Positions 1-64,000 of a DNA stretch of 64,000 bases are shown piece after piece. Below the pieces are notes generated by a model. It was not told where the DNA came from and ran no database searches. It was given only the letters and a program-made list of their open reading frames with translations. Origin of the DNA: Thermoplasmata archaeon (lineage in GTDB: Archaea > Thermoplasmatota > E2 > DHVEG-1); NCBI GenBank assembly GCA_014894395.1, contig JADBLO010000094.1, positions 346-64,345 of the forward strand, given 5' to 3'. Within the stretch, counting starts at the first letter, position 1, and each line of letters opens with the position of its first letter. Made by a program: the position numbers and the translations under genes.

Positions 1-1873
1 ATCGGTAAAGGAAATATAATCATCATCACCGTCAAATAAATAACAAGAACCAATTTTCCCATCAACAAGATTTGATATTGTCATGCTACCATGAGGAACC
101 CCATTATTGCTGTTCCCTGTGTTATCCTGAACCACACCGGTTGGTGCCTTGGAGAGGTGATACACTGCTTCGAATCCATCCCAAACTTTCTCTGGATACG
201 CCATGTAAAGAGATGATGGATTATCATAATACATGAATATCACAGTATCAATAGTTGAAGAAAGCAAAGGTATTTTAACCCAGGTCACAACCTTTCCTGT
301 TGATTGATTAAATAGGTCGATATCATGGTAAAGTTTGGAGGCAACACCGATATTATTCATAAAAAGGATATCACCGCCATCAGCACGTGCTTTCATTAAA
401 TCTGCATCGATTGTGCTAATAAGTATTGGGAAATTATTTTGATTACTTATCAGTTGCGTATGATCAATAATAATTTGTTTTCGATACTGCCAGCCGAAGT
501 TAAAAGGATCAAATTGAGAGGGATATCCGGTCTCAAAGTTGAAGACTTTGCGCGTCCAATATGTTCCATCGGTGACGTTCACAAACCAGCAATATGAATC
601 ACCATACGTTAGACTACTCACCGGAACAGTATAGGTTCCATCATGAACACCTACTTCATGTTTGGAACCAATATTTGGTGTTGTTTCCACGCTGTATTCC
701 ATCGCGTCACCTTGATAATCTTTAAGAGTAAACTGCAGGGATGGAATGTCCATGGGCACATCTTTTTCTCCGTTTGCTGGTATCGGATTTGTTAGGATAG
801 GTGCTACCGGTTCTGTCGTAAATGTCATGGTTTTTTCTATACTGTCTTTCCCATCGGTCACCTGGATATACCAGGTATACTGGACGAGACTTTCCAAACC
901 ACTGATAGGAACCGAGTAAGTCCCATCTGGCTTTAGGCCACCGCTCCCTGATCCGATATCAGGCTCGGTGGTCACATTATAACTCATGAGGTCACCATTT
1001 GCATCGTTTATTTCAAAGCGCAATTCTGTCGTCGATATCGGAACCATCTGTTGTCCATCAGCAGGATCTGTCTGAGTGATTTCTGGTGAGCAGTTCGGTG
1101 GGTAGAACTCAAATTCCTCAGCAGTGACTCTGGTATAGAGCGCGTATCCGAATATCCCGTATGACCGGATCGGAGGGAGGAAAATGCTAAATCCGATGCC
1201 CCAGAAGCCTAGTGCGATACCCTTTTGTTGTCCACCAGCAAGAAAACCGGTGCCAGAAATCAAACCACCAACAGAGGTAATGCCCTCTGGTGTTGACCAC
1301 CAGATGAAAGCCCTGGGAATCGGGGTGAGAAGGAATGGTATGAACCGAGGGAGGATGATGATGGGAAACGCAGACCCAGATCCAAATGTCGCGAAATTAC
1401 AGAACCATTCTGATGCCTTGCTTTGAAAAGGTTGGATGTTTGTACGGAGACGCAGTGATGGCATACTAGAGGGTTGTGTAAGAGAGTTAAGTTGATCCTT
1501 TGACATCGTTGTTGGGAGTGCATGGTTTTCTATAAGAAGATCAAAAAATTCTTGTTGTACTCGCTGGGTTTTTTGGTCATACGGATTGAGTGTGGTTTCT
1601 TTTTTTAATTCTTGATATTTTTCGTAGATTTTCAAGACATCGGAGATAGGGAGCATCGTCTCTTGTTTTTCCAAACCATTTTTTCCTATCACATAGAAAG
1701 TAAAAGTTGAGGTTTTTTCAGTCGCTGGAACTGACGCTGCAATCTTGTTTTGTTGTGCTATCAATGCATTTGTTTGCCCTATACTACTTGGAACAATGCT
1801 AGTTAAGAGCAACAGTATGATAATTACTAAAATGATCCCTTCTTTAAAAATATAATTTTTTATTTCTTTCACC
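1..1873 (-). CDS. Secreted/membrane DUF2341 + LamG (concanavalin A-like) domain protein, paralog 1. Start at 1873; the C-terminal part lies beyond the window edge.
   Basis: Reverse complement of 1873 gives ATG GTG AAA GAA ATA AAA..., i.e. MVKEIKNYIFKEGIILVIIILLLLTSIVPSSIGQ, a signal peptide. The protein is near-identical in organisation to the 4340..6688 gene (about 85-88% nt identity in sampled stretches). AGGAG lies upstream of the ATG. The frame stays open to position 1. Confidence 0.75.
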
Positions 1874-1968
1874 ATAGATGATACTCAACTCCTATACATT
1901 TTTTTCATATTGTATTTTTTTCCTTCCCTCTCTTAAAAGAGGCGGCAACTTGATTATTTTTATTGAGT

Positions 1969-4314
1969 TTATAATCCTGGTACTTCCGGCCCGATATTTA
2001 AGAAATCTGCCGGATCGTTTTGATTATAATAGGAAACGTTAATCCATGCAGAGGATCGAGCTATTTTCGAGAAACGCAGCTCATCAATAGTTCCATACCA
2101 CCTATATGCTGAAGACGAACTTACGCATGCTCGTCCGATGTATACCGTAAAATCCCCGGCAGTTGGATTTGCTTGTGTTGTAGTAATCGGTGTCCCTTTT
2201 ACTCCATTTTTATAGACGGTACTTTCCCCACCTAAACCAGTGAACACGCCGACTGCATGTGTCCAAACATCAACAGAAAAAGCATCTGTGACACTACATA
2301 AATCATAATTATTTGTGAACAAATCTAATCGATCATTATACTGATACAATAAAATAGTATTTTTATTGCTTTGTACACTCCTATCAAATATCCTATGTTC
2401 CCCACTTATGCTTTTTGGGATTGCCCATGCTTCAATGGTATATGAGATTATACCACCAAATGCTGACTGAGTACCAACGTATATTTCACTATTTGTCATA
2501 TCAAAATATCTTCCTTTTCCTATGCGTCCAGTTGTGACGGGGGTATAGGTATTCGCTGTTGCATTGAAGTGATTTGACGTACTGTCTGCAACTTTTGTTC
2601 CTGATGTTTCCCCGAAATGCCATACAGCCACATAATTTGAATCCCAGGTTTTTTCAGGATATGCTTGATCGATACAGCTTGGGTTACCATAATACATGTA
2701 AAAAACCGTATCATTACTTGAGGAAAGAGCGGGGATATTCACCCATGTGATAAGTGTACCAGATGATGCATCGTAGGATTCAAGGTCATGATATACTCGT
2801 GTTGATATCCCAGCATCGTTCATGAACAAGATATCGCCTCCGTCCACTTGTGCTTTCTGGGAAAGATCGGTATCACTCGTACTGATAAGCACTGGGAAAT
2901 TCGTCAGATCATCAGCGACTTGTGTATGGTCGATGGTAATCTGTTTTCGGTACTGCCAGCCGAATTCAAAAGGATTAAATTGGGAGGGATACCCTGTTTC
3001 AAAACTAAATACCTTCCTCGTCCAGTGTGTCCCATCGGTCGCATTCACATACCAAAGATAGGTTGCTCCATATGTTAAACCGCTCACCGGAACCGTATAG
3101 GTTCCATCATGAACACCATTCTGCTGCCCGGAGCCAATGTTTGGTGATGTTTCTACAGTATAGTCCATTGCATCCCCCTGATAATCTTTTAAGGTGAACT
3201 GCAGGGATGGGATATCCATGGGTACATCTCGTTCCCCATCGGCTGGTATGGGATTCGAGATGATTGGTGCTATTGCTTCTGTGGTAAACGTCATGGTTTC
3301 TTCTGTCGTATCTTTCCCATCCGTCACCTGAATATGCCAGGTATATTTTGTCAGATCCACCAGTCCTGACACAGGAACCGTGTACACCCCGAAGGGTTTG
3401 AGATTTCCACTAGCAGACCCGATGTCAGGTTCGGTGGTGACCGTGTAACTCATGAGATCGCCGTCAGCATCCTGTATCCGAAATTGTAACTCTGAAATTG
3501 AAAGTGGGATATTTTGTCCTCCATCAGCAGGAAGAACATCAGAAATTTCTGGTGCTCTATTGGGTGGATAATGTTCGACATATTCTGCGGTTGTAGACGC
3601 TAGTAATGCATATCCGATGAATCCGTATAGAGTGTAACCTGGTAGTGCGTAGGAGATGCCAATTCCCATGAAACCGAATGCGAACCCTGTTTGTGCACCT
3701 TCTGCAACATAGCCTTTGCTGGTGAGCAGGTTTGCTGCAGTGGAGAGGCCAGTGCCTAGCCACAGCATCGCTATACGAGGTCTTGGGAGAAGAAATAACG
3801 GAATTAGTATTCCTGATCCCTCCCCGCCCATGCTGCAGAGCGCACAGGTTCCTCGGTTGGCAAATGGTTGTGGTAAGGATGCTGTGTTTCCTGTCTTTTG
3901 TAGTCGCTCTACCCATCTGGGATTGAGTAAGGAAAGATAGGCTTCTTTTGATACACCTTGCGGGATTAATCCTTTTTCATCGAGCAGATCGACAAACGCT
4001 ATTTTTAAGGATTGAGTCTTCTCACTATAAGGATGTTGCGTCATCTCAGATTTCAGCTCTTTCAATTTATCAAAAATCATGGTCGCATCATCTTGTGCCA
4101 GATTGACATTTTGTTTATTATCGCGAGTTTTTCCAAACGCAACACAGGTGACTACCGTTTTTTCCGCGGTTTCGTCTGTCCCTTCTGTGGGAGAGCTGGG
4201 CTGATTTCTTTTTATGATAGACGTGCCTGTAAGACCTGGTACAAAAGATCCACATACAAAAAGAAGTACAATCCCAACAATGGCTCCTTTTATGAAAAAT
4301 TTCTTTTTACTCAT
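1969..4314 (-). CDS. Secreted/membrane DUF2341 + LamG domain protein, paralog 2 (more divergent).
   Basis: 781-aa ORF with N-terminal signal peptide and a Gly/aromatic-rich hydrophobic segment. It carries a DUF2341-like block (ITIDHTQV..NFPVLI..DILF..WVNI..YMYYGN) and a C-terminal LamG-like block (WHF..GTIDELRFS). GGAGG RBS lies 5 nt upstream. Confidence 0.8.
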   Translation of the reverse strand: MSKKKFFIKGAIVGIVLLFVCGSFVPGLTGTSIIKRNQPSSPTEGTDETAEKTVVTCVAFGKTRDNKQNVNLAQDDATMIFDKLKELKSEMTQHPYSEKTQSLKIAFVDLLDEKGLIPQGVSKEAYLSLLNPRWVERLQKTGNTASLPQPFANRGTCALCSMGGEGSGILIPLFLLPRPRIAMLWLGTGLSTAANLLTSKGYVAEGAQTGFAFGFMGIGISYALPGYTLYGFIGYALLASTTAEYVEHYPPNRAPEISDVLPADGGQNIPLSISELQFRIQDADGDLMSYTVTTEPDIGSASGNLKPFGVYTVPVSGLVDLTKYTWHIQVTDGKDTTEETMTFTTEAIAPIISNPIPADGERDVPMDIPSLQFTLKDYQGDAMDYTVETSPNIGSGQQNGVHDGTYTVPVSGLTYGATYLWYVNATDGTHWTRKVFSFETGYPSQFNPFEFGWQYRKQITIDHTQVADDLTNFPVLISTSDTDLSQKAQVDGGDILFMNDAGISTRVYHDLESYDASSGTLITWVNIPALSSSNDTVFYMYYGNPSCIDQAYPEKTWDSNYVAVWHFGETSGTKVADSTSNHFNATANTYTPVTTGRIGKGRYFDMTNSEIYVGTQSAFGGIISYTIEAWAIPKSISGEHRIFDRSVQSNKNTILLYQYNDRLDLFTNNYDLCSVTDAFSVDVWTHAVGVFTGLGGESTVYKNGVKGTPITTTQANPTAGDFTVYIGRACVSSSSAYRWYGTIDELRFSKIARSSAWINVSYYNQNDPADFLNIGPEVPGL

Positions 4315-4339: not shown

Positions 4340-6688
4340 TTATGGACTTGGTTCTTCAGGTCCTAAAAAAATAAAACCAGCAGGGTTGATCTGATTCTCA
4401 TAACTTGTTTTAATCCAATTCATATCTCGATCACTATTAGATATTCTTACTTCATCGATGGTCCCATAAAAATAATCTGTTCCAATACGGTTATCTCCAA
4501 TGTAAAAAGGATATGCATTGGATGAAGTGCCACTCCAGGGAACATTTCCTTCCACGACGTTATCAACATATAAGATAAGTTGAGAACCGGTGGCGACTAA
4601 CGAAACGTAATGCCAGTTGGTATCTCTAAAAGTATCAATGCTTTCAATTTTTTGGGTACCATCAGCATAAACATAATATTTTTCATCATGGTAACGAAAA
4701 ACAGAGGGGTCGTTTTTGTGGATACTCATAAACACATCACCACCAGTAGATGGGTCTGCTTCATCAGTACTAAAAGCAACCCAGCATTCCAGGGTGAATT
4801 TCGACATGCTATCTGTGTTTGAGTAGGTAGAAATGCTGTCTGTCCTTGCATCATAGACTTCGCCGCCATCTATTTTCGCAGAGGTGGTATGCGTAGTTCC
4901 TGAGGTAGTACAATCCTTTCCGTTGCTTGTAGAATCGTATCGTGTTTCATATGATTCTTTCAAATGCCAAACTCCCCAAAAGTTCGCATCCCATGTTTTC
5001 TCTGGATACTGCTGCGGAAGACACGTTGGATTTCCATAATACATGTAAAACGTCGTGTCCTCATTTGATGAAACATGCGTGAGGTTCACCCAGGCAATCA
5101 ATGCCCCGGTCTCATGATTAAAGGATTCGATTTCATAATTAAACCGTGTTGAGACACCAGCGCTATGCATGAAAAGAATGTCCTCGCCATTTTCTCGTGC
5201 CTTTTGACTCAGATCAGCGTCAACGATGCTGAGGAGGACTGGAAAGTTCTCTACGTCACCAGCGACATTTGTATGATCGATTGTGATCTGCTTCCGGTAC
5301 AACCAGCCGTACTCAAATGGGTTAAATTGTGCAGGAAATCCGGTTACAAAGCTGAATGTTTTACTGACCGGATGTGCCCCATCGGTGACATTCACAAACC
5401 AACGATACGCGGTGTCCTGTGCAAGGCCACTCACGGGAACAGTATAGGTACCATCGTGGACGCCATTCACATGCGCGGAACCAACATTTGGTGACGTTTC
5501 TACCGTATAATCCATTGCATCTCCCTGGAAATCCATTATAGTGAATTTCAGCACAGCGAGATCAGAAGGCACCTGACGTTCTCCATCTGCTGGTGACGGA
5601 TTTGAAATCAATGGAGCAACATTTTCTGTCATAAACGTCATGGTTTTTTCTATGGCATCTTTCCCATCGGTGACCTGGATACGCCAGGTGTACTGGGTAA
5701 GACTTTCTAACCCAGAAATAGAGATTGAATAGACACCATTTGATTTCAAACCTCCACTCCCTGACCCAATATCAGGATATGTTGTCACATTGTAACTCAT
5801 GAGGTCACCATCTTCATCGTTAATTTCAAAGCGCAAATTAGCAGTAGACAGGGGGATCATTTGTTGTCCATCGACAGGGTCAGTTTGACTGATTTCTGGT
5901 GGGTTGTTCGGCGGGTAGAATTGAAATTCCTCAGCAGTGACTCTGGTAAATACTGCATATCCGAAGATCCCATACGACATGATCGGTGGGAGGAAAATGC
6001 TAAATCCTATGCCCCAGAAACCAAGTGCGATACCTTTTTGTTGTCCTCCTGCGAGAAAACCGGTGCGGGAAATCAAACCACCCACAGAGGTGATACCTGA
6101 TGGTGTTGACCACCATACGAATGCTCGGGGGATAGGTGTGAGAAGGAATGGTATTAATCGTGGGAGGATGATAATCGGAAACGCTGATCCTTCTCCAAAT
6201 GTCGCGAAATTACAGAACCATTCTGAGGCTTTATTTGGAAAAGGTTGGATGCCGGTGCGGAGATGCGTTGGTGGTATAACCGGGGGTTGTGTAAGAGAGA
6301 TAAGTTGGTCTTTAGACATCCCTGTCGGGAGAGCATGGTTTTCTTCGAGAAGATCAAAAAATTCTTGTTTTACGCGCTGGGTTTTATCACTATACGGATT
6401 GGATGTCATTTCTTTTTTTAATTCTTGATACTTTTCATAGATTTTCAAGGTATTTGAAGCAGAGAGTATCTTCTCCTGTTTTTCTAAGCCATTTTTTCCA
6501 ATGACATACAATGTAAAAGATGAGGTTTTTTCAGTCGATGGAAGTGAGGTTTTAGTAATATTTTGTTGTTGTGTCGATGCGTGTGTTTGCCCTATGCTAC
6601 TTGGGACAATGCTTGTCATGAGTAATAGAACAAAAATTCCAAAAATTAATCCGCTTTTAAATTTTATATTTTTCATCTCTTTCCCCAA
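4340..6688 (-). CDS. Secreted/membrane DUF2341 + LamG domain protein, paralog 3.
   Basis: 782-aa ORF with the same architecture as paralogs 1 and 2: signal peptide, hydrophobic hairpin at about aa 160-255, Fn3-like repeats, DUF2341 motifs and a LamG-like C-terminus (GTIDEVRISN). Confidence 0.8.
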   Translation of the reverse strand: MGKEMKNIKFKSGLIFGIFVLLLMTSIVPSSIGQTHASTQQQNITKTSLPSTEKTSSFTLYVIGKNGLEKQEKILSASNTLKIYEKYQELKKEMTSNPYSDKTQRVKQEFFDLLEENHALPTGMSKDQLISLTQPPVIPPTHLRTGIQPFPNKASEWFCNFATFGEGSAFPIIILPRLIPFLLTPIPRAFVWWSTPSGITSVGGLISRTGFLAGGQQKGIALGFWGIGFSIFLPPIMSYGIFGYAVFTRVTAEEFQFYPPNNPPEISQTDPVDGQQMIPLSTANLRFEINDEDGDLMSYNVTTYPDIGSGSGGLKSNGVYSISISGLESLTQYTWRIQVTDGKDAIEKTMTFMTENVAPLISNPSPADGERQVPSDLAVLKFTIMDFQGDAMDYTVETSPNVGSAHVNGVHDGTYTVPVSGLAQDTAYRWFVNVTDGAHPVSKTFSFVTGFPAQFNPFEYGWLYRKQITIDHTNVAGDVENFPVLLSIVDADLSQKARENGEDILFMHSAGVSTRFNYEIESFNHETGALIAWVNLTHVSSNEDTTFYMYYGNPTCLPQQYPEKTWDANFWGVWHLKESYETRYDSTSNGKDCTTSGTTHTTSAKIDGGEVYDARTDSISTYSNTDSMSKFTLECWVAFSTDEADPSTGGDVFMSIHKNDPSVFRYHDEKYYVYADGTQKIESIDTFRDTNWHYVSLVATGSQLILYVDNVVEGNVPWSGTSSNAYPFYIGDNRIGTDYFYGTIDEVRISNSDRDMNWIKTSYENQINPAGFIFLGPEEPSP

Positions 6689-45234: not shown

Positions 45235-45493
45235 GGTGGTTATTCCTCCTTATTTATTTCGGAGTTTTTTACAAAAGAACTAAAACAAAATGTTTCAAAG
45301 GCTGAGCTATGAAACGGTCGTTTCTCGTCCTTTGTACGAATTGAAATTCTGCTATTCTTTTAAATAGGTTTCTATTGAAAAAAATTGAGGGGTGTTGTGG
45401 GAATGAAATCGGTCCAGTTTTCTTTTGTTTTATTTTTTTATATTTTATTTCTTAGAAAAAAATATATACCTTAGTACATATTCGCATGTCATG

Positions 45494-46345
45494 GGGAGGA
45501 AAAAGGTGAGTAGAAAAATTCTCCTGAAGAAAGGTGTAGCCGTTGCCATTATCCTCTTGTTTCTTGGAGTCGCTGTTGTACCTAGCATCAACATCAGCCT
45601 TGTCAAGGCAGCTACCGACAATGATCTTGTTGAGGTAACTACCGAGGCGTATGGTATCAAAGGCTTCGGGAATCATACCGTGAAGCTCACCAAACAGCAA
45701 TATCAGAATTTGGAGCTGTATCTGGTTGGTTTCAGAGATCGATTGAATACAACGACAACCAGGGAAGAAGCTGTCCCTCTTTTCAAGGAAGCAGTCGTGG
45801 AATTGAACAAGTACGGGTTGCTCCCAAAGGGGATGAGTGTTGAACACGCACAAAGACTGGTAACTGGATATTATCAAAATTCCAATAGCCTCCGTACGAT
45901 TCAAAATAATTTTCAGAGCATAGCGAAGATTAAACAGAAACAAAATCTGAATCCGAACATGAAGAATGCGTTTTGTTTACTTTTTGCTGCTGCTACGAAA
46001 ATCCCTGATTATTCTCCGAGCCCATTTATCATTCCGTTTGGTGTTTTGCTTGTTTTTGGGTTAATTCCGGCATTCTTAGTATCACTGATAGGAGCAGAGG
46101 AGTTAGCAAACGCCTTGGCAGAGATAGGAATTTTTATCTGGACACTGAATCCTTTTCGAGTATTCAACTTCGTGTTGTTTATGGGGTATGAGGTAGAGCT
46201 TCGTTCATTTGGTCTGAAAGGTCTCGTTCATGAGAATTTAAACAGTGGTGGTTTATTTATGGGCTATTCTGGCTTAATGCTGTCCCCATTCAGTGACAAA
46301 ACGTATTTCTTAGGGTTTACTTTAAGTGTGAATGGTCTTAGTTAG
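45494..46345 (+). CDS. Membrane protein sharing the N-terminal module of the DUF2341-family proteins but lacking their extracellular domains.
   Basis: The start MGRKK...VAIILLFLGVAVVPS is an N-terminal signal/anchor. The GLLPKGMSVEHAQRL motif aligns with HALPTGMSKDQLISL and GLIPQGVSKEAYLSL in the 4340..6688 and 1969..4314 proteins. A Gly/aromatic hydrophobic segment follows. The track start at 45425 is an AT-rich extension. Confidence 0.55.
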   Translation, partial: GRKKVSRKILLKKGVAVAIILLFLGVAVVPSINISLVKAATDNDLVEVTTEAYGIKGFGNHTVKLTKQQYQNLELYLVGFRDRLNTTTTREEAVPLFKEAVVELNKYGLLPKGMSVEHAQRLVTGYYQNSNSLRTIQNNFQSIAKIKQKQNLNPNMKNAFCLLFAAATKIPDYSPSPFIIPFGVLLVFGLIPAFLVSLIGAEELANALAEIGIFIWTLNPFRVFNFVLFMGYEVELRSFGLKGLVHENLNSGGLFMGYSGLMLSPFSDKTYFLGFTLSVNGLS

Positions 46346-46424: not shown

Positions 46425-47486
46425 TTGAATGGTAAAATATTATCTCTTATTGTTTGTACGCTGATGATTGTGAGCACTGTTGTACCTGTATCTGGAATTG
46501 TACTAATGGAAAAGACTTCTCATCCTTTAACAAAAGGGAACATTCTTTATGTTGGTGGAAGTGGTCCGAATAATTATACCAAGATCCAAGATGCCGTCAA
46601 TGCATCAAGTAATGGGGATACTGTGTTTGTGTATGATGATTCCTCGCCGTATGTAGAAAACATTGTGATTGATACCTCAATATCTTTAATTGGTGAGGAT
46701 AAAAATACTACCATCATTGATGGTGCAATCAATGGTCACGGTGTAAATATCACCGCAGATAACGTAACGGTAATTGGGTTCACTATCCAGAATTGTAGTA
46801 ATGGATCGGGAATTTGTATATCCTCAAATAATAACAGAATCACAGATAATATCATATTGAATAATAGGTTTGGCATCGGAACATATTATGGTAACCCATT
46901 TGAACTCCCAGCGTTTCCAGGCAGCGGGTATAACACGATTACAAATAATCTAATCATTCGTAATGAGGGGTGTGGTATTTTATTGAATGGTCAAAATAAC
47001 ACCGTTAATGGCAATATTATTTCTCAAACCGAGTATGGAATTATGTTAGCGGTAGCGGTGGCCAATAATATCTCAAATAATATTATCTCCGAGAATGAGA
47101 ATGGTATCTTTATTGCAGCTTCATATAATAATGTGATTTATCGGAATAATATATCGCATAATGAAAATCTCGGTGTTCTTACCTTTTGCACTTCCTCAGA
47201 TATCATCCTTCAGAATAATTTTATTGGGAATGGACAGAATGCATATTTTAATCAGCCGATACTTACACGGTTTCGGATTCTTAAAAACACTTTACATTTT
47301 CCAATTAGTCGAAGTGTTTGGGATCAGAATTATTGGGATAGACCAAGGATACTGCCCTATATGATTCCTGGATTGATCAGTTTAATTCGTGGACCTATTA
47401 CTGACACCCCATACATTTTTGATTATTTTCAGATTGATTGGCATCCTGTACAAGAACCATACGATATTCCTTTACAAGATGGGTGA
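46425..47486 (+). CDS. Secreted right-handed parallel beta-helix repeat (PbH1/NosD-like) protein.
   Basis: Signal peptide, then repeated NNxIxxN motifs (ITDNIILNN, ITNNLIIRN, VNGNIISQT, ISNNIISEN, IYRNNISHN). Confidence 0.7.
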   Translation: MNGKILSLIVCTLMIVSTVVPVSGIVLMEKTSHPLTKGNILYVGGSGPNNYTKIQDAVNASSNGDTVFVYDDSSPYVENIVIDTSISLIGEDKNTTIIDGAINGHGVNITADNVTVIGFTIQNCSNGSGICISSNNNRITDNIILNNRFGIGTYYGNPFELPAFPGSGYNTITNNLIIRNEGCGILLNGQNNTVNGNIISQTEYGIMLAVAVANNISNNIISENENGIFIAASYNNVIYRNNISHNENLGVLTFCTSSDIILQNNFIGNGQNAYFNQPILTRFRILKNTLHFPISRSVWDQNYWDRPRILPYMIPGLISLIRGPITDTPYIFDYFQIDWHPVQEPYDIPLQDG

Positions 47487-47492
47487 CACGAA

Positions 47493-47900
47493 ATGAAAAC
47501 AGGATATAGACTGGTAGGGTTGGTTGTTGCTATCTTCTGTTTGTTTCTCCTGAATTCTATGCCCATTGTGAACGCAAATACTGATCATTTTACCAATAGT
47601 GTAGTACTTGTCATAGGGAAATGCAATACGGTATCCACAACCGCGTTGTGGTTATTTGGTTTTAAGTTCGTCTATAACAAGGAAGTTATTATTCAAGCGA
47701 ATGGTGCAGAGGGGGAGAAGATAAATGCGCTGATATTACCTTCTAAAATTGGATTTTATTTTGGTCAGGAAAATATTTTCATACAGATGGAAGGGGCAAA
47801 AGGTCTCTTTTTTTGGGGGGAAAAATCCTTGTTCTTTCATAATGTCCCACCACGGATATTTGCATTTTGTAAAGCAGTAGATATCTGGGTGAGTTATTAG
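47493..47900 (+). CDS. Small secreted hypothetical protein.
   Basis: Signal-peptide-like N-terminus and no recognisable domain. 135 aa. Confidence 0.35.
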   Translation: MKTGYRLVGLVVAIFCLFLLNSMPIVNANTDHFTNSVVLVIGKCNTVSTTALWLFGFKFVYNKEVIIQANGAEGEKINALILPSKIGFYFGQENIFIQMEGAKGLFFWGEKSLFFHNVPPRIFAFCKAVDIWVSY

Positions 47901-49305: not shown

Positions 49306-51348
49306 ATGAGCGATATAATGGTTTGGAAAAAATATGGATCATTACTTTTTGTAGTACTTCTTGCAAGTGTATCTGTACTACCATTCGTTGCAGATGCTGC
49401 AGATTCGACCACTTTTATTCAATCTCCAATCCACTATTTGAATGATCCAAGAGGGAATGATTGGTGGCCGATGTTCCGCCATGATGTAACACATAATGGT
49501 TTTTCAACGACAACCGCACCGGAAGATAATCAAGTGCTGTGGTCGTATCAGACGAATTATGTCATCTCATCGTCACCTGCAATGTCTCATGGGCGAGTCT
49601 ATATTGGTTCATGGGACTGGAACCTATACTGCTTAGATATGGATAGCGGGAGTCTCGTATGGAATTATTCAACAACGGGGGAGATTACTTCGTCTCCAGC
49701 AGTTGCAAATGGGAAAGTCTATGTCGGTTCACAGGATTCAAAGCTGTATTGTCTGAATGCGATTGATGGAACATTCCTCTGGAGTTATAAAACAGATTTT
49801 ATCATTGATACCTCACCGACCGTTATAGACGACAAAGTATTTTTTGGTTCTAGTGACGGTTCACTATACTGTTTAGACGCAGATGATGGATATCTCCTCT
49901 GGAAATATCAAACAGGGAGTGTTATCGTGTCATCTCCAGCAGTGACAGATGAAAAGGTCTATTTTGGTGTTACGAATGGTGATTTCTTATGTGTGGATAG
50001 TGATAATGGAGCTTTCATCTGGGAATATACCATGACCGATGGAACATACTCTTCGCCGACAGTATTTGATGGAAAGATTTACTTTGGATCAAATGACAAA
50101 AACGTGTATTGTTTGGATGCGGATGATGGGAGTCTGATGTGGAATTATAGCGCACTCAGCGAAGTCCATTCATCACCCGCAATCGCATATGATTATCTCT
50201 ATATCGGTACGAGCGATGGGAGGTTGCTCTGTCTAACCAGAGACACCGGTGGGTTTGTATGGAGCTATCAAATAAGCGGTAGTGTCGAATCATCACCTGC
50301 AGTTGCTGATGGCAAGGTCTATTTTGGTACAAATCCGTGTTGTGGTTTTTTAAGTTATTTCATCTGTCTTAATGCATTTAGTGGAACCAAGATTTGGGAG
50401 TATAATTTTAACCTACTAACAGGTTCAAAATCATCCGCTGCCCTTGCAGCAAGTAAGGTGTTTGTTGGTTCCGCAGACGGAAAAGTGTATGCATTCGGAG
50501 ACATAGAATTCCTCGCTGATGCAAACGGCCCCTATCACGGTGTTATCAACACGTCGGTTGATTTTATAGGATCGGCGTATGGAGGAGAACTAGGTTTTTC
50601 ATGGTACTGGGACTTTGGTGATAACGCGACATCAACAGATCAGAATCCAACACATGCCTATGCGTCTCTAGGGGAGTATACGGTGACGCTCACTGTGACA
50701 GATAACATTGGTGATGTGACAACGGATGAGACATCGGTATTTATTGAAATACCGAATACACCACCTGAAATACCAGTAATCGATGGTCCAACAACGGGAA
50801 AACCAGGAAAGTCCTATGAGTACACCTTCACTGCATCAGACTCAAATGGGGATAAGATCCTCTATTCTATTGATTGGGGAGATAACACGACGAGTGGATG
50901 GATAGGACCATTTCTCTCTGGAGTTGAGCTGAAACGAGAGCATACGTGGTCTGAAAAAGGGTCATATATAGTGAAAGCCAAAACAAAAGACAACCATGGC
51001 GCAGAGAGCAACTGGTCAGATCCCTTTGAAATGACGATTACTGCACCAACACTTGATATCGAAATAAAAGGTGGGTTTGGCGTCACAGTTACAATTATAA
51101 ACGATGGCGATGCTCCTGCGACGAATGTCTCCTGGAACATCACATTCGATAGCGGTTTTGTCTTCCCTGCGTTAAAAAATGGTATGATCCCTACGATTTC
51201 TGCAGGTGGACAAGCACCAATACAAGTGTTGGTGTTCGGCTTTGGTAAAACGACATTTACCGTCTCAGTGATGTGTAACGAGGAAATATCTGCCAAAAAA
51301 ATTGCACATGCATCGCTGTTGCTGTTCTTTGTTATCGGGGTAAAATAA
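49306..51348 (+). CDS. Secreted PQQ-like beta-propeller repeat protein with PKD domains and a C-terminal membrane anchor.
   Basis: Signal peptide, then repeated VYxGSxDxxLYCLDAxxGxxxWxY blades, then WDFGDNATSTDQNPTHAY...YTVTLTVTDN PKD motifs, then a hydrophobic C-terminus. 680 aa. Confidence 0.85.
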   Translation: MSDIMVWKKYGSLLFVVLLASVSVLPFVADAADSTTFIQSPIHYLNDPRGNDWWPMFRHDVTHNGFSTTTAPEDNQVLWSYQTNYVISSSPAMSHGRVYIGSWDWNLYCLDMDSGSLVWNYSTTGEITSSPAVANGKVYVGSQDSKLYCLNAIDGTFLWSYKTDFIIDTSPTVIDDKVFFGSSDGSLYCLDADDGYLLWKYQTGSVIVSSPAVTDEKVYFGVTNGDFLCVDSDNGAFIWEYTMTDGTYSSPTVFDGKIYFGSNDKNVYCLDADDGSLMWNYSALSEVHSSPAIAYDYLYIGTSDGRLLCLTRDTGGFVWSYQISGSVESSPAVADGKVYFGTNPCCGFLSYFICLNAFSGTKIWEYNFNLLTGSKSSAALAASKVFVGSADGKVYAFGDIEFLADANGPYHGVINTSVDFIGSAYGGELGFSWYWDFGDNATSTDQNPTHAYASLGEYTVTLTVTDNIGDVTTDETSVFIEIPNTPPEIPVIDGPTTGKPGKSYEYTFTASDSNGDKILYSIDWGDNTTSGWIGPFLSGVELKREHTWSEKGSYIVKAKTKDNHGAESNWSDPFEMTITAPTLDIEIKGGFGVTVTIINDGDAPATNVSWNITFDSGFVFPALKNGMIPTISAGGQAPIQVLVFGFGKTTFTVSVMCNEEISAKKIAHASLLLFFVIGVK

Positions 51349-51507: not shown

Positions 51508-53994
51508 TTACTGGTAGCCACCGATTTTTAACGTAGGATCGCCGAGCAACACCCATTGTTGAACGGATTTTGGATGTCCCGCAGCAAGATCGGTCATGTC
51601 GAAGGTATTGACGTAGCTTGTCAGAGTCTGCTGGTATGCTTGCCCTAGGATATCGAGTCCTTCCGCTCCGTACTGTTTGAAGAATTCAATGGTGATCCAT
51701 CCGTCACCACCGCCTGTTGTGAGATCAATACCAGGCATACCATACCCAAGCCCTGTGTTTCCCATGGTAGCGATGGCACCGCCATGTGGGTTTCGAATCA
51801 GTCTCCAACTGAATGCTTCTGGAACCGGCGTCCCGTAACACCACATGTGTATTTTTGGGAAGTTCGGAAACACATAAATCATAGCATCAAGAAGCCCATA
51901 CACCATCGAGACATTGAACTGACTGTTATGACAACCACCAATCACTGCAATGGGGAGTTTCTCTTCATTTCGAATGGTATCCATCGGGAATATCGGCTTT
52001 GTAAAATATGGTGACCAAGGACGCAGCGTGGTTACTTCAAGCCCGGTGATGCTTCCATATTTACGATTTCCTGGAATACCAGGATAATGATCAGCCCACA
52101 CGTTTGGACTGCCGTGACCGGAAAGGAAAATAAAACCAGCACCTTCGTTCCATGCATTAATGACGTCCTGCTCTCCGGTGTATTTACCATTGGATGCCCA
52201 GATGATATCACGTTGGAACTCTTCCGGCATGTAATACAGAGCACCGCCTCTGCCAAGTAACGCCTGTTCACCAGTGGTATATTCTCCTTCGTAGTACATC
52301 TCTGTGTTATTTCGCCAGTCTTCAAACACGATATCATCGGTGCTATTTTTTATCCACACATGGATGCTGCTGAGATTCCCGTATGGTTTGGGGTCATAGC
52401 TTTTTCCCCGGATGGTAAGAACCTCATCAAGATAGCTCATGTTTGCCCAGAAGTAGAATTCGTTACAATAGGCTTCTCCATCATTGGGGACATAGGTAAA
52501 ATCGGTGTTGCCAAGAACATTTCCTTCTGAAACAGTCACGATTTCAGCGATGGGTAAACCTGGGTAATGGTTGATCCGTAAATTATCATTATGGTTGAAG
52601 GTGAGGTTGGTCTCTTTGATTTTGTCAACGGTGACATTGATTGTTTCAATGGGTCCGTATTCTGCAGAAGGGTTGCTGCTCTGCGCATAAATCGTGTATG
52701 CTCCTGTTGGGAGACCAGTTGTGTCCCATTGTATGTTTAAATCCTTTTGGTCAAGGAACCCGTCACCACTGATAACCGTCATTTTCTTGAACCACTCAGC
52801 CCCGTAGGTAGTAGTCTCATAGTTGATGATTTTTTTGACCACAGTTCGTACCTCAGCAACGCTTACGCAAGCAAGTCTGCCAAGAGCAACATCAGGGTAG
52901 AGATCAAGTCCTGTGTCATTTTCAACCCCTGGTTTTCCCCACGCAGCAAAAACCCCATCACCATTGGGATCCCAGCTTGAGAAATTTCCTCCGTTTTCGT
53001 AGATATCAGCATAGTATAAATCACTGATAACACCAGGGTCAAAATATGTTACTTCAGCGGTTAAGGGGAATTTCGGGTCGTCATAGAGATTGGTGTATCG
53101 AACAGGAACATTCCAGCCTTTGCTGCCTTGGTTAGCATCGTCTCTGGGTTTTGCACAAAACATGCTTTTCAGTCCACCGATGAGCAGGACTGAGGTTATC
53201 CCCTGGGTTTCTATAGCGTCTTTGATGAAGTATTTGATTTGTTCTGGTTTATCAACACCGACATACTCGGCATAAATATCCTCTGTGGTTTTCAAATATG
53301 TACTAACATTATAACTGTTTTTATGATCGATAAGTGGTTGAAGTGCGCTTTCAAATTTTTCTGGTGCAATGATGACTAGATCATATGCGCTGGTTGCTGG
53401 AAACGGGGAATGCGCTAAAGGTGTATAGGTAACACTGATGTCTGCGTTGTTTGCTATCTGTAAGGTTCCTGTTGCTGGTGTGTATCGAATCGGATAATAA
53501 TGAATAGAAAGGAAGGTAACATGTTGGTTGTTTTTGTTTAATCCGACGCCGGTTGTTGTGGTGTACCAGGTTGTTGGATATGGTGTTGTCATTGCATAAA
53601 TGGATTCATCTTTCATCGTGGTACCGGCAGCGATACTTTGATATTCTGGGGTGAGGGGAAGGAGCGCAGCTGCTGGTTTGATTTCTTGGTCGATATACTG
53701 AGTGGTGATGTCTTGTGGGGTAAGAGAAACACGAATATCGGTTGATCCAAATGGTAGTTCAATGATATGAACGAGTTCTGGAAGTCGTGGATGACCTGTG
53801 ATGGAGAGATACGTTGAAGACCCTGCGAGTTCAAGCATGATATAATCGTTGTTTGCTGATTGGATCTCCACCTGTGGTGTGGAGAGATGTTGAGATAGAG
53901 ACATGGTTGCCTGTTGGTTGGTTTTTATTCCTACGACTCCTAGTGTGGAGCCAACAAGAATTCCTACAATAAACAGTATTGCTATTTTTTTCAT
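51508..53994 (-). CDS. Secreted gingipain-like (peptidase C25 family) cysteine peptidase-domain protein.
   Basis: Signal peptide, then the C25-like N-terminal block LVIIAPEKFESALQPLIDHK...SVLLIGG. Candidate catalytic His (FLSGHGSP) and Cys (IGGCHNS) lie about 60 aa apart. 828 aa. Confidence 0.55.
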   Translation of the reverse strand: MKKIAILFIVGILVGSTLGVVGIKTNQQATMSLSQHLSTPQVEIQSANNDYIMLELAGSSTYLSITGHPRLPELVHIIELPFGSTDIRVSLTPQDITTQYIDQEIKPAAALLPLTPEYQSIAAGTTMKDESIYAMTTPYPTTWYTTTTGVGLNKNNQHVTFLSIHYYPIRYTPATGTLQIANNADISVTYTPLAHSPFPATSAYDLVIIAPEKFESALQPLIDHKNSYNVSTYLKTTEDIYAEYVGVDKPEQIKYFIKDAIETQGITSVLLIGGLKSMFCAKPRDDANQGSKGWNVPVRYTNLYDDPKFPLTAEVTYFDPGVISDLYYADIYENGGNFSSWDPNGDGVFAAWGKPGVENDTGLDLYPDVALGRLACVSVAEVRTVVKKIINYETTTYGAEWFKKMTVISGDGFLDQKDLNIQWDTTGLPTGAYTIYAQSSNPSAEYGPIETINVTVDKIKETNLTFNHNDNLRINHYPGLPIAEIVTVSEGNVLGNTDFTYVPNDGEAYCNEFYFWANMSYLDEVLTIRGKSYDPKPYGNLSSIHVWIKNSTDDIVFEDWRNNTEMYYEGEYTTGEQALLGRGGALYYMPEEFQRDIIWASNGKYTGEQDVINAWNEGAGFIFLSGHGSPNVWADHYPGIPGNRKYGSITGLEVTTLRPWSPYFTKPIFPMDTIRNEEKLPIAVIGGCHNSQFNVSMVYGLLDAMIYVFPNFPKIHMWCYGTPVPEAFSWRLIRNPHGGAIATMGNTGLGYGMPGIDLTTGGGDGWITIEFFKQYGAEGLDILGQAYQQTLTSYVNTFDMTDLAAGHPKSVQQWVLLGDPTLKIGGYQ

Positions 53995-60285: not shown

Positions 60286-63200
60286 TTATTTCTGTTTTAT
60301 CTTCGTGGCTACATGAGCCGTATATTCTCCTTGGATGGTACCAAAGGGTATGTAGACATTGAACTGCACGTAAACGATTTGGCTTGTGTTGTTTTTATGA
60401 AAAATACCTGATATGTTGATTACGTCAATAGCATTTAATTCTCGGATGCCATTAAACATCATATCGGCAGTGATATCATCATTAGGATCTGCATTTGCAC
60501 AGATATAGACATTATTTGCGATGGGGATGATATCACCTGACGAAACATTCGTAAGATTCTCTTCAAAAAATATACTAATATTATAGTCGTAGTTTGAAGA
60601 ATAGGTGATGTTGACAACATTCGATGTCGCATTATACCCTGGTGCTGCTCGGACATCCACCCAGTTTTTTTCAGGCAAAATAGTAGCAAATTTGTAGACT
60701 CCATACTCATCCCTCTTCCATGATTTTAAGCCAGAAGCGCCTATAACGGTGATGTTAAAGTTCCATGAAAATGAATCGCTGGTAGTGTTTTTGGTAGTGT
60801 CCCAAGTGTTATTACTGCACGCCCACCTCGTTTGACTTAGAGGTTTGAAACTTATGTTGACAATCCTCGTGGTGCTATTGATAATGGTTTCGGAACAATT
60901 TCCACTGATGATTTGCGCTTCATTATCTGGCCAAAGCATTCTGAACTGCGCAGTTCCAGTGGTATTCCTATATTGCAGAAACATATTTAGATTGCTGCCT
61001 AAGGTTTGATTGTAACTGCTGGTCTCGTTACCATGGTCATACCAAGCCATGATATTGACGTATTGAATATCAACCCATCCATTTCTATCAGTGATGTTGA
61101 TAGTAAACAAATATTCATTGTTAACATCAAGAAGCCCGGTGATATTATTTAGTTTGGAAACAGTACTATTCCTTAGATCATAGAAGTTTATTATCGGTGA
61201 AGAAAGATTTGGAGTGTAAAAACACCTCGCATCAGCGTTCAGTGGTGCTGGTTCATCAGATGAACCAGCTTTCTTTCCTATGCTGTAGAACTCATAATAA
61301 CCTCTGCCATTTGGAAAATTAAAACTCCAGTTCCAAGGGACATTAGAATCAGGATTAGAGGCATTATTCCAGATCATCCAATCTATAAAAGTTGTTGCAT
61401 TGACCCATATCTGATCGATATAGACATCATCCTCATTATCTGATCCACTACATTCAAACATGATTTGTGCAGTAGCTGTGAGGTCGTAAGCAGACTCATT
61501 TATCCACACGGTTGTATGGTAGAACTGATCATTAACAAAATCATCATTTGCATCATAATCAGCCACAGTCACCCAGCCAGTTCCATCATTGTACTTCACC
61601 CAGAAATCTTCAATAATTTCCACTGTATAGAACCAGAACTCGACTTTAAGATAATTATATCCGGGGGTTTCAAGATCCATGGTATTGGTATGATAAAACG
61701 ATGACGCAACACCGCTGTTATCCTGAATATTCGCAGCACTACTTCCTTGATGTGCATATGTTCCACCAGTATATCGTGAACAATCGTCCCCGCCATCAGT
61801 ATAATTGCCCCACCCAAGTTCAAAGTCATCGTAGGTTAACGTATCCCACCCAGTAAAATTATGGTCACTCCAGCGGTAGTACAATGTAACATTATCGACA
61901 GCAGTATAATTAGAAGCAGTAATAATAAAAGGTGATGATGTGACATTGTATGGAGAGAACGGATCAACTGAAGTGTTAAGCGGCATCGTGGTAAAATGAA
62001 ATATGGCAGAGACATTATTTATACTATCATTGACTGCTACTTTCCAATAGTAAGTGATAGAGTAATTCTCGAATTGTGAAAAGACATAACTAACCGTGGA
62101 ATTCGCACTTATACTACTGTTCGTATTTCTTAAAATCCAAACTCCGGTTCTATTCTCATACCAATACACATCAAGTGCAGCTCCCTCAGTATCATTTGCC
62201 CAGATCTGACAAAGGGATTGGAGTTCAACAGTAGTAGTACCATTTGGTGCAGGGGATATGAGTTCAATAGTTGGAGCATTTCCTCTCGGGTTGTAATGAC
62301 ATCTCGCATCAGCATTCAGTGGTGCTGGTTCATCAGATGATCCTGCTTTCCGTCCTATGCTGTAGAATTCATAGTAACCGATACCATTGGAGAAGGTGAA
62401 GTTCCAACTCCAAGGACTGTTCTCATCTGGATTGCTTACATTGTTCCATTTTGTATATCCCTGTTCCTCACTGCCAAAACTATTCCAGGACGGTGGCGTT
62501 GCCCGATATTTTCTCACAAATACATTATCCACCAATACATAATTTGACGAATCCATACTTACCCCATGAACATGCGAAACTAGATAATCAGCGGTTGTTT
62601 TGGTAGAATCTGTTACCGAACGAGCGCTATCGCCAGCTGGAGCAGATGGTGTGATTTTTGCTGAATAATCAGCATCTGAAACATTTATTTTAACATGATA
62701 CCAGGTACCTGTTGAAACAACAGGAAAAGCAGTTCCTATCTGGGTCCAGTTTGTAGGCGCAAAAAATTCAAAAAAACCCCCATCAGCCGCTGAATTCTGT
62801 AACTGCCAACAATATCCATTAGTCCAAGATAAATCATTTACTCTCCAACCAAATTGATGAATAACTCTTGGGGTCCCAGCTAAATACACATCATATTCGA
62901 TAATGCCATTTAGTATCTTGTAGGTGGTACGAATCCTTGTGTCTTGATCGCTTCTATTAGCAGGTATTGAGTTGTCAGGATCATGTCTCAGCGCTGGAGC
63001 TGAATTCCCCTGACTCTGATTAATATAAATTGAATCGGTGTTCCACGAGTCCATTACCCATTTACTTAATCCATTTGAAAAATCATCAAAGAAATAAAAC
63101 GTGTTTGTCCCGTTGCTTGTTGTTGAGGCACTGCTATTTCCGTAGTACATCCAAATGTCTGTATCATTGAGTGAATTGTTTAACCAGAAAGTAGCTTGAG

Positions 63201-64000
63201 TATCGGTAGTATAGTTCTTAAGCCAATAGGATAGTTGTGTTGTATTATCTGAATAACTTATAAATCTAGTATCACCGAAATCACTTCGTGCATGACCATT
63301 GCAGGTAACGTTTCCGCCACTTGTATTTCCTACAATGATTTTCATCTGATAGCCCCCATTTTTTCCAGTTATGGACAACAGCTTTTTGTACGACCAGCAT
63401 GGATTCCACCATGCTGAATTTTGAGAGGAATAATAATACCAGATGGTCACATTTTTCACATCATCACTTGCTGTTGCACTGATCGATAATGGAGAGATCG
63501 TGACGTTGTACGGTGAAATGGAATTGACCTGGGAGGATGGCTTAGATGTGGAATATCCACATTGCGTATCATACTCTGGTGACGATGGTGGATCTTCTCT
63601 ATTGCCTGCCTGATCATACGCTATACTATAGAACCGATAGTGGCCTTCTCCGCTGGGGAAATTGAAATTCCAACTCCAAGGTGTATTTTCATCTCTGCTA
63701 AAAGAAGTCCAAGCATTCCAACTTGATGTGTTACCTGTCCTATATTGATAGTAAAGAGTGACATTTTTAATTCCGCTCAGTTCATCACTTGTATTGGTCA
63801 CACTAATCAGTAGTGGGTTTCCTGTGGCATTATGCCAATATGTGGTAATTGGGTCAACCTGCGAAGAAGGTTTTACAGTTTCATAACCACATGATGTGTC
63901 ATTGCCCGTAAAATACTCGGCATTACTATCATTATCTACAGCAATACTATAGAATCGATAGTATCCTTCTCCATTTGGAAATGTAAAAATCCATGAAATA
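60286..64000 (-). CDS. Giant sequon-rich surface protein with internal repeats; the 5' end lies beyond the window edge, so the gene is partial.
   Basis: The frame stays open upstream of the track start (63801 is an internal GTG) through position 64000. The module PWSWNFxFPNGxGYYEFYSIG.KAGSSDEPAPLNADARC.Y recurs at least 4 times. The C-terminal portion resembles the two smaller paralogs. Confidence 0.65.
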   Translation of the reverse strand, partial: ISWIFTFPNGEGYYRFYSIAVDNDSNAEYFTGNDTSCGYETVKPSSQVDPITTYWHNATGNPLLISVTNTSDELSGIKNVTLYYQYRTGNTSSWNAWTSFSRDENTPWSWNFNFPSGEGHYRFYSIAYDQAGNREDPPSSPEYDTQCGYSTSKPSSQVNSISPYNVTISPLSISATASDDVKNVTIWYYYSSQNSAWWNPCWSYKKLLSITGKNGGYQMKIIVGNTSGGNVTCNGHARSDFGDTRFISYSDNTTQLSYWLKNYTTDTQATFWLNNSLNDTDIWMYYGNSSASTTSNGTNTFYFFDDFSNGLSKWVMDSWNTDSIYINQSQGNSAPALRHDPDNSIPANRSDQDTRIRTTYKILNGIIEYDVYLAGTPRVIHQFGWRVNDLSWTNGYCWQLQNSAADGGFFEFFAPTNWTQIGTAFPVVSTGTWYHVKINVSDADYSAKITPSAPAGDSARSVTDSTKTTADYLVSHVHGVSMDSSNYVLVDNVFVRKYRATPPSWNSFGSEEQGYTKWNNVSNPDENSPWSWNFTFSNGIGYYEFYSIGRKAGSSDEPAPLNADARCHYNPRGNAPTIELISPAPNGTTTVELQSLCQIWANDTEGAALDVYWYENRTGVWILRNTNSSISANSTVSYVFSQFENYSITYYWKVAVNDSINNVSAIFHFTTMPLNTSVDPFSPYNVTSSPFIITASNYTAVDNVTLYYRWSDHNFTGWDTLTYDDFELGWGNYTDGGDDCSRYTGGTYAHQGSSAANIQDNSGVASSFYHTNTMDLETPGYNYLKVEFWFYTVEIIEDFWVKYNDGTGWVTVADYDANDDFVNDQFYHTTVWINESAYDLTATAQIMFECSGSDNEDDVYIDQIWVNATTFIDWMIWNNASNPDSNVPWNWSFNFPNGRGYYEFYSIGKKAGSSDEPAPLNADARCFYTPNLSSPIINFYDLRNSTVSKLNNITGLLDVNNEYLFTINITDRNGWVDIQYVNIMAWYDHGNETSSYNQTLGSNLNMFLQYRNTTGTAQFRMLWPDNEAQIISGNCSETIINSTTRIVNISFKPLSQTRWACSNNTWDTTKNTTSDSFSWNFNITVIGASGLKSWKRDEYGVYKFATILPEKNWVDVRAAPGYNATSNVVNITYSSNYDYNISIFFEENLTNVSSGDIIPIANNVYICANADPNDDITADMMFNGIRELNAIDVINISGIFHKNNTSQIVYVQFNVYIPFGTIQGEYTAHVATKIKQK
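61250..64000 (-). repeat. Intragenic nucleotide repeats, period roughly 1.1-1.3 kb, inside the giant surface-protein gene.
   Basis: Similar DNA blocks occur at about 61255-61380, 62335-62450, 63600-63725 and 63930-64000, all encoding the YYEFYSI...PWSWNF module. Confidence 0.5.

Follow-up and report, generated by a model that had tools for sequence, protein, structure and literature searches.

What does a strongly hydrophobic segment do in an exported, lectin-like archaeal protein, and does such a protein act alone or as part of a multi-gene system? The question is raised by a 64,000-nucleotide stretch of a Thermoplasmata archaeon (contig JADBLO010000094.1, positions 346 to 64,345; the window, from here on) in which three co-directional paralogs lie in tandem on the minus strand, A first and then B and A' (Table 1). 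An initial annotation of the open reading frame (ORF) of A had read from the letters alone a signal peptide, a conserved N-terminal module (N-module) with a characteristic motif, a hydrophobic hairpin, Fn3-like repeats, DUF2341 and a LamG-like C-terminus, and had proposed a membrane-embedded module linked to MotA/TolQ/ExbB-like channels. We have found this order of domains in the three paralogs. However, the prediction for the hydrophobic segment is a meander of four beta-strands and not a helical membrane hairpin, and the proteins appear, by their matches and neighbourhoods, to form a stand-alone family.

The hydrophobic segment is a conserved, predicted beta-module

The segment had been placed at about 5920-6210, in good agreement with the limits found here (5915-6232). 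We modelled paralog A with AlphaFold2 (AF2) in two runs, one over residues 1-355 with 31 sequences and one over residues 50-262 with 24 sequences (residue numbers for A follow the 782-residue numbering from the TTG codon discussed below). Both runs gave the same four strands, at residues 153-170, 188-204, 210-233 and 236-258, i.e., four long strands per protomer in the models. The predicted local distance difference test (pLDDT) was 82-94 outside the loop formed by residues 171-187 and 52-63 inside it. The Gly/aromatic-rich segment of the initial annotation is therefore real, although the models predict two hairpins and not one.

The pattern of conservation points in the same direction. It has a period of 2, as seen in A213-x-G-x-Q-x-G-x-A-x-G223, with positions i+2 as conserved as positions i+4, and not a period of 3.6. 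Along the near halves of strands 3 and 4, charged residues occur at every other position (138 family members), and near-invariant prolines mark the strand ends (P171, P176, P187, P234/P235 and P259). The uninterrupted apolar runs have only 13-15 residues, with conserved Pro or Arg at their limits. On a crude, position-independent Hessa-type scale, no 19-residue stretch inside the module has an insertion free energy (dG) of +4 kcal/mol or less, versus 0.0 for the N-terminal signal of the same protein. Since modelled strands, period-2 conservation, alternating charge, prolines at strand ends and the lack of any helix-grade stretch coincide, we consider the segment to be, as predicted by the models, a four-stranded beta-meander of two long hairpins, and the helical membrane hairpin that a membrane-embedded module would have implied is unsupported in A.

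In this beta-module, the half that adjoins the remainder of the protein is amphipathic, and the far half has apolar residues on both faces, over ca. 15 residues per strand in the second hairpin and 9-10 in the first. Thirty consecutive columns of the far half of the second hairpin contained no more than 8% of charged residues on either face (138 members), and the first hairpin was free of charges with the exception of two near-invariant Arg in the Pro-Arg motifs of its tip. At the far end, Pro-Pro caps one hairpin and the two near-invariant Pro-Arg motifs cap the other. The module is also rich in aromatic residues. It exists in two forms: 45% of the 138 members, A and A' among them, carry a nine-residue apolar insert (LIPILLTPI) between the P-R motifs, and the other 55%, B included, read LPRPR without it. 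The two forms are found side by side in the window, the equivalent site of B being located at about nucleotides 3780-3800. A mean-field direct coupling analysis of strand pairing over the 138 sequences was discarded, dominated as it was by this nine-residue indel and by gap artefacts.

The beta-module is the best-conserved region of the protein, with a mean column identity of 69% versus 28% for the full-length relatives, which argues for its functional importance. A 163-residue ORF on the plus strand (5937-6428) lies inside gene A opposite the beta-module and recurs at six homologous loci, in all likelihood not as a gene but as a shadow ORF that the codon bias of the Gly/Pro-rich region creates.

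Architecture of the three paralogs

The ORF 4340..6688 is present on the minus strand and would code for 782 residues if started at TTG 6688. Because M5 in this numbering is nearly invariant among relatives, and the 778-residue product from ATG 6676 is identical to GenBank MBE3122241.1 (named "DUF2341 domain-containing protein [Thermoplasmata archaeon]"), the true start is most likely ATG 6676 and the gene 4340..6676. A and B are 46% identical over their full length. In the three paralogs the order is a signal peptide or signal anchor, an alpha/beta N-module of ca. 80 residues, the hydrophobic segment of ca. 105 residues, two Fn3-like repeats, DUF2341 and LamG (the C-terminus of A' lies outside the window). 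The claim of an exported, lectin-like protein with an unusual and uncharacterised N-terminal region was supported.

All three paralogs begin with a basic n-region followed by an apolar, uncharged hydrophobic region (h-region) of 18-22 residues, modelled by AF2 as a helix at residues 8-25 of A. A Ser/Thr/Gln-rich linker comes after the signal (residues 34-53 of A; pLDDT below 50 at residues 27-51). Candidate cleavage sites lie between THA and S in A and between VKA and S in protein C, a further protein of the window described below. However, with an h-region as long as 19-22 residues an uncleaved anchor seems, from the sequence, as possible as a cleaved Sec-type signal. A class III (pilin) signal was considered and rejected: prepilin signals have a conserved Gly/Ala before the h-region, whereas in alignments A1 and A2 this position is variable, with G, S, E, K, T, I, C or W. 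No C-terminal anchor was found in A, B or A'. The N-module itself was modelled with pLDDT values of 81-96 and is followed by a variable linker of low confidence that leads to the hydrophobic segment. Its motif reads ALPTGMSKDQLISL in A, LIPQGVSKEAYLSL in B and LLPKGMSVEHAQRL in protein C.

The C-terminal half is more conventional. The Pfam fn3 profile (PF00041) gave 23.7 bits at residues 282-342 of A, just under its cut-off of 25, and the segment of the family hidden Markov model (HMM) corresponding to the first repeat (A1 positions ~258-351) matched the second one as well, with E 5e-27. The first repeat (residues 265-354) was modelled as all-beta with pLDDT above 90. DUF2341 scored 30.1 bits in A and 30.6 bits in B (gathering cut-off 23.4), and Laminin_G_3 48.4 and 58.6 bits, respectively (gathering cut-off 27.6). 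LamG is the least conserved part between paralogs. Extracellular proteins of bacteria and archaea that combine DUF2341 and LamG are regarded as surface adhesin-like, and by its domain matches the C-terminal half of A is an ordinary member of this class.

Two contexts have been described for DUF2341. The methanococcal DUF2341 proteins of type IV pilus (epd) loci have been proposed to be pilus-tip adhesins, the sole archaeal context discussed for this domain (PMC4858521), and a screen for transformation genes picked up one methanococcal DUF2341 gene (PMC10133366). Certain bacterial proteins carry DUF2341 as a fusion to the A subunits of MotA/TolQ/ExbB-type "generic ion transporters" (PMC12505986). 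The proteins of the epd loci have the DUF2341 plus LamG half in common with A, but there are no pilus genes in the window. The A subunits share DUF2341 with A, which nevertheless lacks a MotA_ExbB domain and has a segment predicted as beta and not as a helical channel. Neither context applies to A, B and A'.

The N-module in a sister family

On the opposite strand at 45.5 kb, the initial annotation had pointed to a shorter protein with the N-module and the hydrophobic segment but nothing else. This protein C starts at ATG 45491, and not at 45494 as had been given. The common N-module is well supported: hhalign aligned A residues 2-140 on C residues 3-130 with a probability of 98.4% (E 7.5e-15). 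Pairwise BLASTP was marginal (B versus C, E 2e-4), and an HMM of the C-type N-module matched 110 of 175 proteins of the A family. As judged by these profile comparisons the N-module is homologous between the two families. The family of protein C comprised 740 matches at E<=0.01 in a protein database at 90% identity, mostly of ca. 280 residues and named only as proteins of Thermoplasmata metagenome-assembled genomes (MAGs), and no Pfam domain was found in it (searched to E 1).

The hydrophobic parts are a different matter. Like A, the proteins of the C family have a signal or anchor and the N-module, and then a hydrophobic region with G-F-x-G...Y/F-x-x-G-x-A-L strands at its end; unlike A, they lack Fn3, DUF2341 and LamG. 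In the C family it is the N-module that is conserved, and the hydrophobic region differs between members in both sequence and length and includes helix-grade segments, while in the A family the situation is reversed. Three hhalign set-ups did not establish that the hydrophobic parts of A and C are homologous (P = 0.12, 0.04 and, at best, 8e-4, the last with a probability of 24% and over the last ~33 columns only), and the second half of the claim about protein C was not confirmed. The order of motifs is nonetheless colinear in both regions (an FC motif, P-I-I-x-P, W and the terminal G-F-x-G...Y-x-x-G-x-A-L), which is suggestive of a kinship as yet unproven. The transmembrane segments expected for these proteins had a mixed outcome on the crude scale: there were none internal to the large proteins, while residues 183-201 of protein C were helix-grade and as insertion-competent as the signal peptide.

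Table 1. Coordinates of the tandem paralogs, of protein C and of their domains in the window (residues of A in the 782-residue numbering).
Feature	Position	Strand	Residues	Description and basis
Paralog A (the gene under study)	4340..6676	minus	778 aa from ATG 6676	DUF2341 and Laminin_G_3 Pfam matches
Signal peptide or signal anchor of A	6590..6676	minus	5-33	KxxK n-region, 22-residue uncharged h-region, Pro and small residues in c-region
N-module of A	6290..6529	minus	54-133	Predicted beta-hairpin and three helices, ends in LLPxGMS motif; AF2, profile alignment
Hydrophobic beta-module of A	5915..6232	minus	153-258 (~105 aa)	Predicted; AF2, conservation, charge pattern
Pro-rich apolar tip loop, first hairpin	6128..6178	minus	171-187	PIIILPRLIPFLLTPIP; flanked by near-invariant P176-R177 and P187-R188
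Second hairpin, fully apolar far half	5945..6034	minus	219-248	GIALGFWGIGFSIFLPPIMSYGIFGYAVFT; charge occupancy in alignment
Two tandem Fn3-like repeats	5336..5899	minus	264-357 and 358-451	Pfam, AF2, family HMM
DUF2341 domain (PF10102)	4991..5191	minus	500-566	Pfam
LamG / concanavalin-A-like lectin domain (PF13385)	4418..4843	minus	616-757	Pfam
Paralog B	1969..4314	minus	781 aa	Same architecture as A; short LPRPR form of beta-module
Paralog A'	1..1875	minus	N-terminal 624 aa	C-terminus cut by window start; A-type beta-module
Protein C	45491..46345	plus	284 aa	Signal or anchor, N-module, helix-grade apolar segment, second apolar stretch, C-terminal Gly/aromatic strands
N-module of protein C	45593-45880	plus	about 35-130	Homologous to N-module of A by profile alignment
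Helix-grade apolar segment of protein C	46037-46093	plus	183-201	dG -0.4 kcal/mol, Kyte-Doolittle 2.65

Searches for known relatives

Neither the N-module nor the beta-module matched Pfam, in the case of the beta-module even at E values up to 10, and neither matched NCBIfam. Profiles of both compared with the PDB gave nothing credible; the single profile match (E 4e-4) was to the coiled-coil neck of DC-SIGNR and was rejected. Foldseek searches against the PDB and BFVD gave no match for the two modules either, with best E values of 0.025 and 0.033 and a TM-score of no more than 0.17. Relatives of the family were not found in IMG/VR, leaving a viral origin unsupported. The N-module and the beta-module could be two undescribed domains, definable as new protein families.

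Distribution and decay of the family

Among 1.84 billion representative proteins, a profile of the beta-module matched 149 clusters (50% identity), 124 of them at E<=1e-10, and in every match the module was located at about residues 140-260 of proteins of 600-820 residues, or in fragments of such proteins. Among full-length relatives, LamG was present in 48 of 54 and DUF2341 in 43 of 54. This recurrence, together with the constant position of the beta-module, indicates a fixed architecture. All clusters were named only as Thermoplasmata or Thermoplasmatota MAGs. In the species representatives of GTDB we found 46 loci, again all from MAGs, labelled Thermoplasmatota, Thermoplasmatales, Thermoplasmata or unclassified Euryarchaeota/Methanobacteriota. 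As far as these matches go, the family is lineage-specific, paralog-rich and stand-alone.

Up to ca. 10 copies were found in one MAG, often in tandem, and the copies were often decayed. At two loci (L002, 10001-12014, and L003, 4578-6591) the second copy of the tandem was split into four ORFs of 306, 69, 116 and 106 residues, of which the second and the fourth still matched DUF2341 and LamG, and at another (L001, 10001-11552) only a stump of 279 residues remained. This suggests that the paralogs are gained and lost rapidly.

Genomic context

The tandem and gene C are located at either side of a sugar-nucleotide and glycan biosynthesis island of ca. 38 kb (7047-44635), with A, B and A' on one side and C on the other. 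The island contains GlmS, four nucleotidyltransferases, two NeuB-type nonulosonic-acid synthases with a cytidylyltransferase, a dTDP-4-dehydrorhamnose epimerase, several epimerases/dehydratases, two DegT aminotransferases, C- and O-methyltransferases, a split transketolase, a Wzx-like flippase and GT2 enzymes. The same junction was found at L002 and L003, where a tandem A-like pair lies beside an NTP-transferase, GlmS, a second NTP-transferase and a flippase.

We found by Pfam no MotA/TolQ/ExbB, pilus or secretion-system gene in the window (~50 ORFs; those of at least 150 residues). When the flanking ORFs of the 46 loci were clustered, no neighbour recurred except the family itself, a second cluster being the antisense shadow ORF, and a gene of the C family was found within 4 kb at only three of the 46 loci. 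The link to MotA/TolQ/ExbB-like channels thus found no support in the proteins, in the ORFs of the window or in the conserved surroundings of their homologues. With no conserved neighbour and genes of the C family seldom near, there is also no multi-gene system of the kind that had been suggested.

Downstream of gene C come a secreted NosD-like beta-helix protein (46425-47486) and a small secreted protein of 135 residues (47493-47900). Homologues of the latter are found directly downstream of C homologues at L054/L055 (68% identity) and L017 (77% identity), and at L029 a NosD-like gene abuts a C-like gene. The three genes may form a conserved pair or trio.

Possible roles of the beta-module

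The best reading that we can offer, and one to which we give about an even chance, is that A, B and A' are Sec-exported surface proteins with a lectin-like arm, in which the beta-module serves as a membrane-proximal device for anchoring or assembly; export, surface location and this role are what we infer from the sequences. Two Fn3-like spacers, DUF2341 and the fast-diverging LamG would make up the outer part of the molecule, displayed and binding, and the inner part would be a fixed N-terminal cassette formed by the signal or anchor, the N-module and the beta-module. With stretches of 13-15 residues per strand that are apolar on both faces, the sheet cannot face water and has to be shielded by lipid, by a homo-oligomer or by another domain. 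Its far half would be buried in the cell membrane or in a homo-oligomer, maybe in both as a closed oligomeric sheet, and this burial would hold the lectin arm at the cell surface. We favour a membrane-proximal role because the module comes right after the N-module, which we take to be membrane-proximal and which precedes membrane-grade segments in the C family, because the module is rich in aromatics with Arg at its tip, and because no anchor other than the N-terminal segment is evident.

A sub-case of this anchoring reading takes the closed oligomeric sheet into the membrane itself. The beta-module would then be a beta-structured membrane anchor, with hairpins that cross or deeply enter the cytoplasmic membrane as a closed oligomeric barrel and with the Arg-Pro tip at the far side; this we regard as decidedly improbable. 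Oligomeric beta-barrel anchors and stems with four strands per protomer are well known in trimeric autotransporters (YadA-type anchors), secretins and MACPF/CDC stems, and by analogy A would resemble them in having two long beta-hairpins per protomer with apolar far parts, not viable as a water-exposed monomer. However, there was no match in sequence or fold (the pIV secretin came up in Foldseek only at E 0.12 and TM-score 0.11), and unlike these anchors the module of A is N-terminal, is apolar on both faces and belongs to an archaeal host without evidence of an outer membrane in the window.

Several observations weigh against the anchoring or assembly reading as a whole. The 22-residue h-region of A could anchor the protein alone, and the other secreted proteins of the window likewise have only an N-terminal signal, so that the missing C-terminal anchor proves little. 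Lipid-facing positions are seldom as highly identical as the apolar residues are here, a feature that suits a protein-protein core better than plain membrane insertion. The AF2 models are monomers obtained with alignments of only 24-31 sequences, and their predicted template modelling scores (pTM) of 0.46-0.53 make the relative placement of N-module and beta-module uncertain. N-glycosylation sequons are not enriched in A and B (4 seen versus ~7 expected), reason for which we do not claim heavy glycosylation for them. Finally, to our knowledge there are no beta-structured membrane anchors in archaeal cytoplasmic membranes, and the beta-type integral membrane proteins that we know of are tied to outer membranes and pore-forming toxins.

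In the main rival explanation, the beta-module would be an oligomerisation core or stalk of a purely extracellular kind. The sheets of the protomers would pack into a fibre- or prism-like bundle that never enters lipid, and an uncleaved N-terminal helix would hold the protein. The extreme conservation of the apolar residues and of one Gly/Ala face is as expected for tight protein-protein packing, the uncharged 22-residue h-region is modelled as a helix at residues 8-25, the Ser/Thr/Gln-rich linker that follows resembles a stalk, and the other exported proteins of the window use an N-terminal segment alone. We nevertheless consider it somewhat unlikely, since the two near-invariant Arg at the tip of an apolar hairpin and the richness in aromatics are typical of membrane interfaces too, and the C family, its sister, carries helix-grade membrane segments in the corresponding position.

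Other alternatives fare worse. An alpha-helical transmembrane or re-entrant hairpin of the glycine-zipper kind, coupling the lectin to a channel of the MotA/TolQ/ExbB type, would explain the Kyte-Doolittle peaks of 1.64-1.72 at residues 167-190 and 219-248 and the G-x3-G spacings in GQQKGIALGFWG, and could appeal to the bacterial fusions of DUF2341 to MotA/ExbB-type A subunits (PMC12505986). It is very improbable considering that both AF2 runs give strands, that the apolar runs are short and closed by Pro or Arg, that conservation follows a period of 2, that the helix-insertion dG stays above +4 kcal/mol, that no glycine-zipper or MotA_ExbB match appeared in Pfam even at E up to 10 and that no such channel gene is found in the window or recurrently at the 46 loci. 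The proteins could also be lectin-guided agents similar to pore-forming toxins: LamG would bind a target glycan and the beta-module, shielded beforehand by the N-module, would insert as an oligomeric beta-barrel. The two hairpins of each protomer and their apolar far half, a lectin domain that diverges fast between paralogs, many paralogs per genome and the absence of an evident dedicated anchor would all fit. However, known beta-pore-formers have amphipathic stems in which one face is polar, while here both faces are apolar; Foldseek found no likeness to pore-formers (best E 0.025, TM-score no more than 0.17); and the genes lie in housekeeping surface-glycan contexts, not in toxin or immunity contexts, and have no immunity-like partner gene. 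We therefore give this explanation hardly any weight.

With up to ca. 10 paralogs, a fixed cassette combined with a diverging lectin domain and a location beside glycan islands, the family is a candidate source of major adhesins or of components of the envelope in the uncultured Thermoplasmata of sediments. The N-module, with the 740 matches of the sister family, and the beta-module, with its 149 clusters, are definable as new families. A beta-type membrane anchor, if true, would widen the known modes of attachment of archaeal surface proteins. An oligomerisation core only would be a useful but ordinary annotation.

Other exported proteins in the window

Some other genes of the window code for large exported or DUF2341-containing proteins. 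At its end (60286-64000, minus strand) there is a further large DUF2341 protein (E 2.3e-16) of more than 1171 residues, with its N-terminus beyond the window end; the part inside the window has no LamG match, N-module or beta-module. An exported peptidase of family C25 (gingipain-like, 828 residues, with an N-terminal signal) is located at 51508-53994 on the minus strand and fits a protein-degrading sediment archaeon. On the plus strand, at 49306-51348, we found an exported PQQ-like beta-propeller that has PKD domains and, at its C-terminus, a short apolar tail (residues 661-679, Kyte-Doolittle 1.65), a gene that is syntenic with L054.

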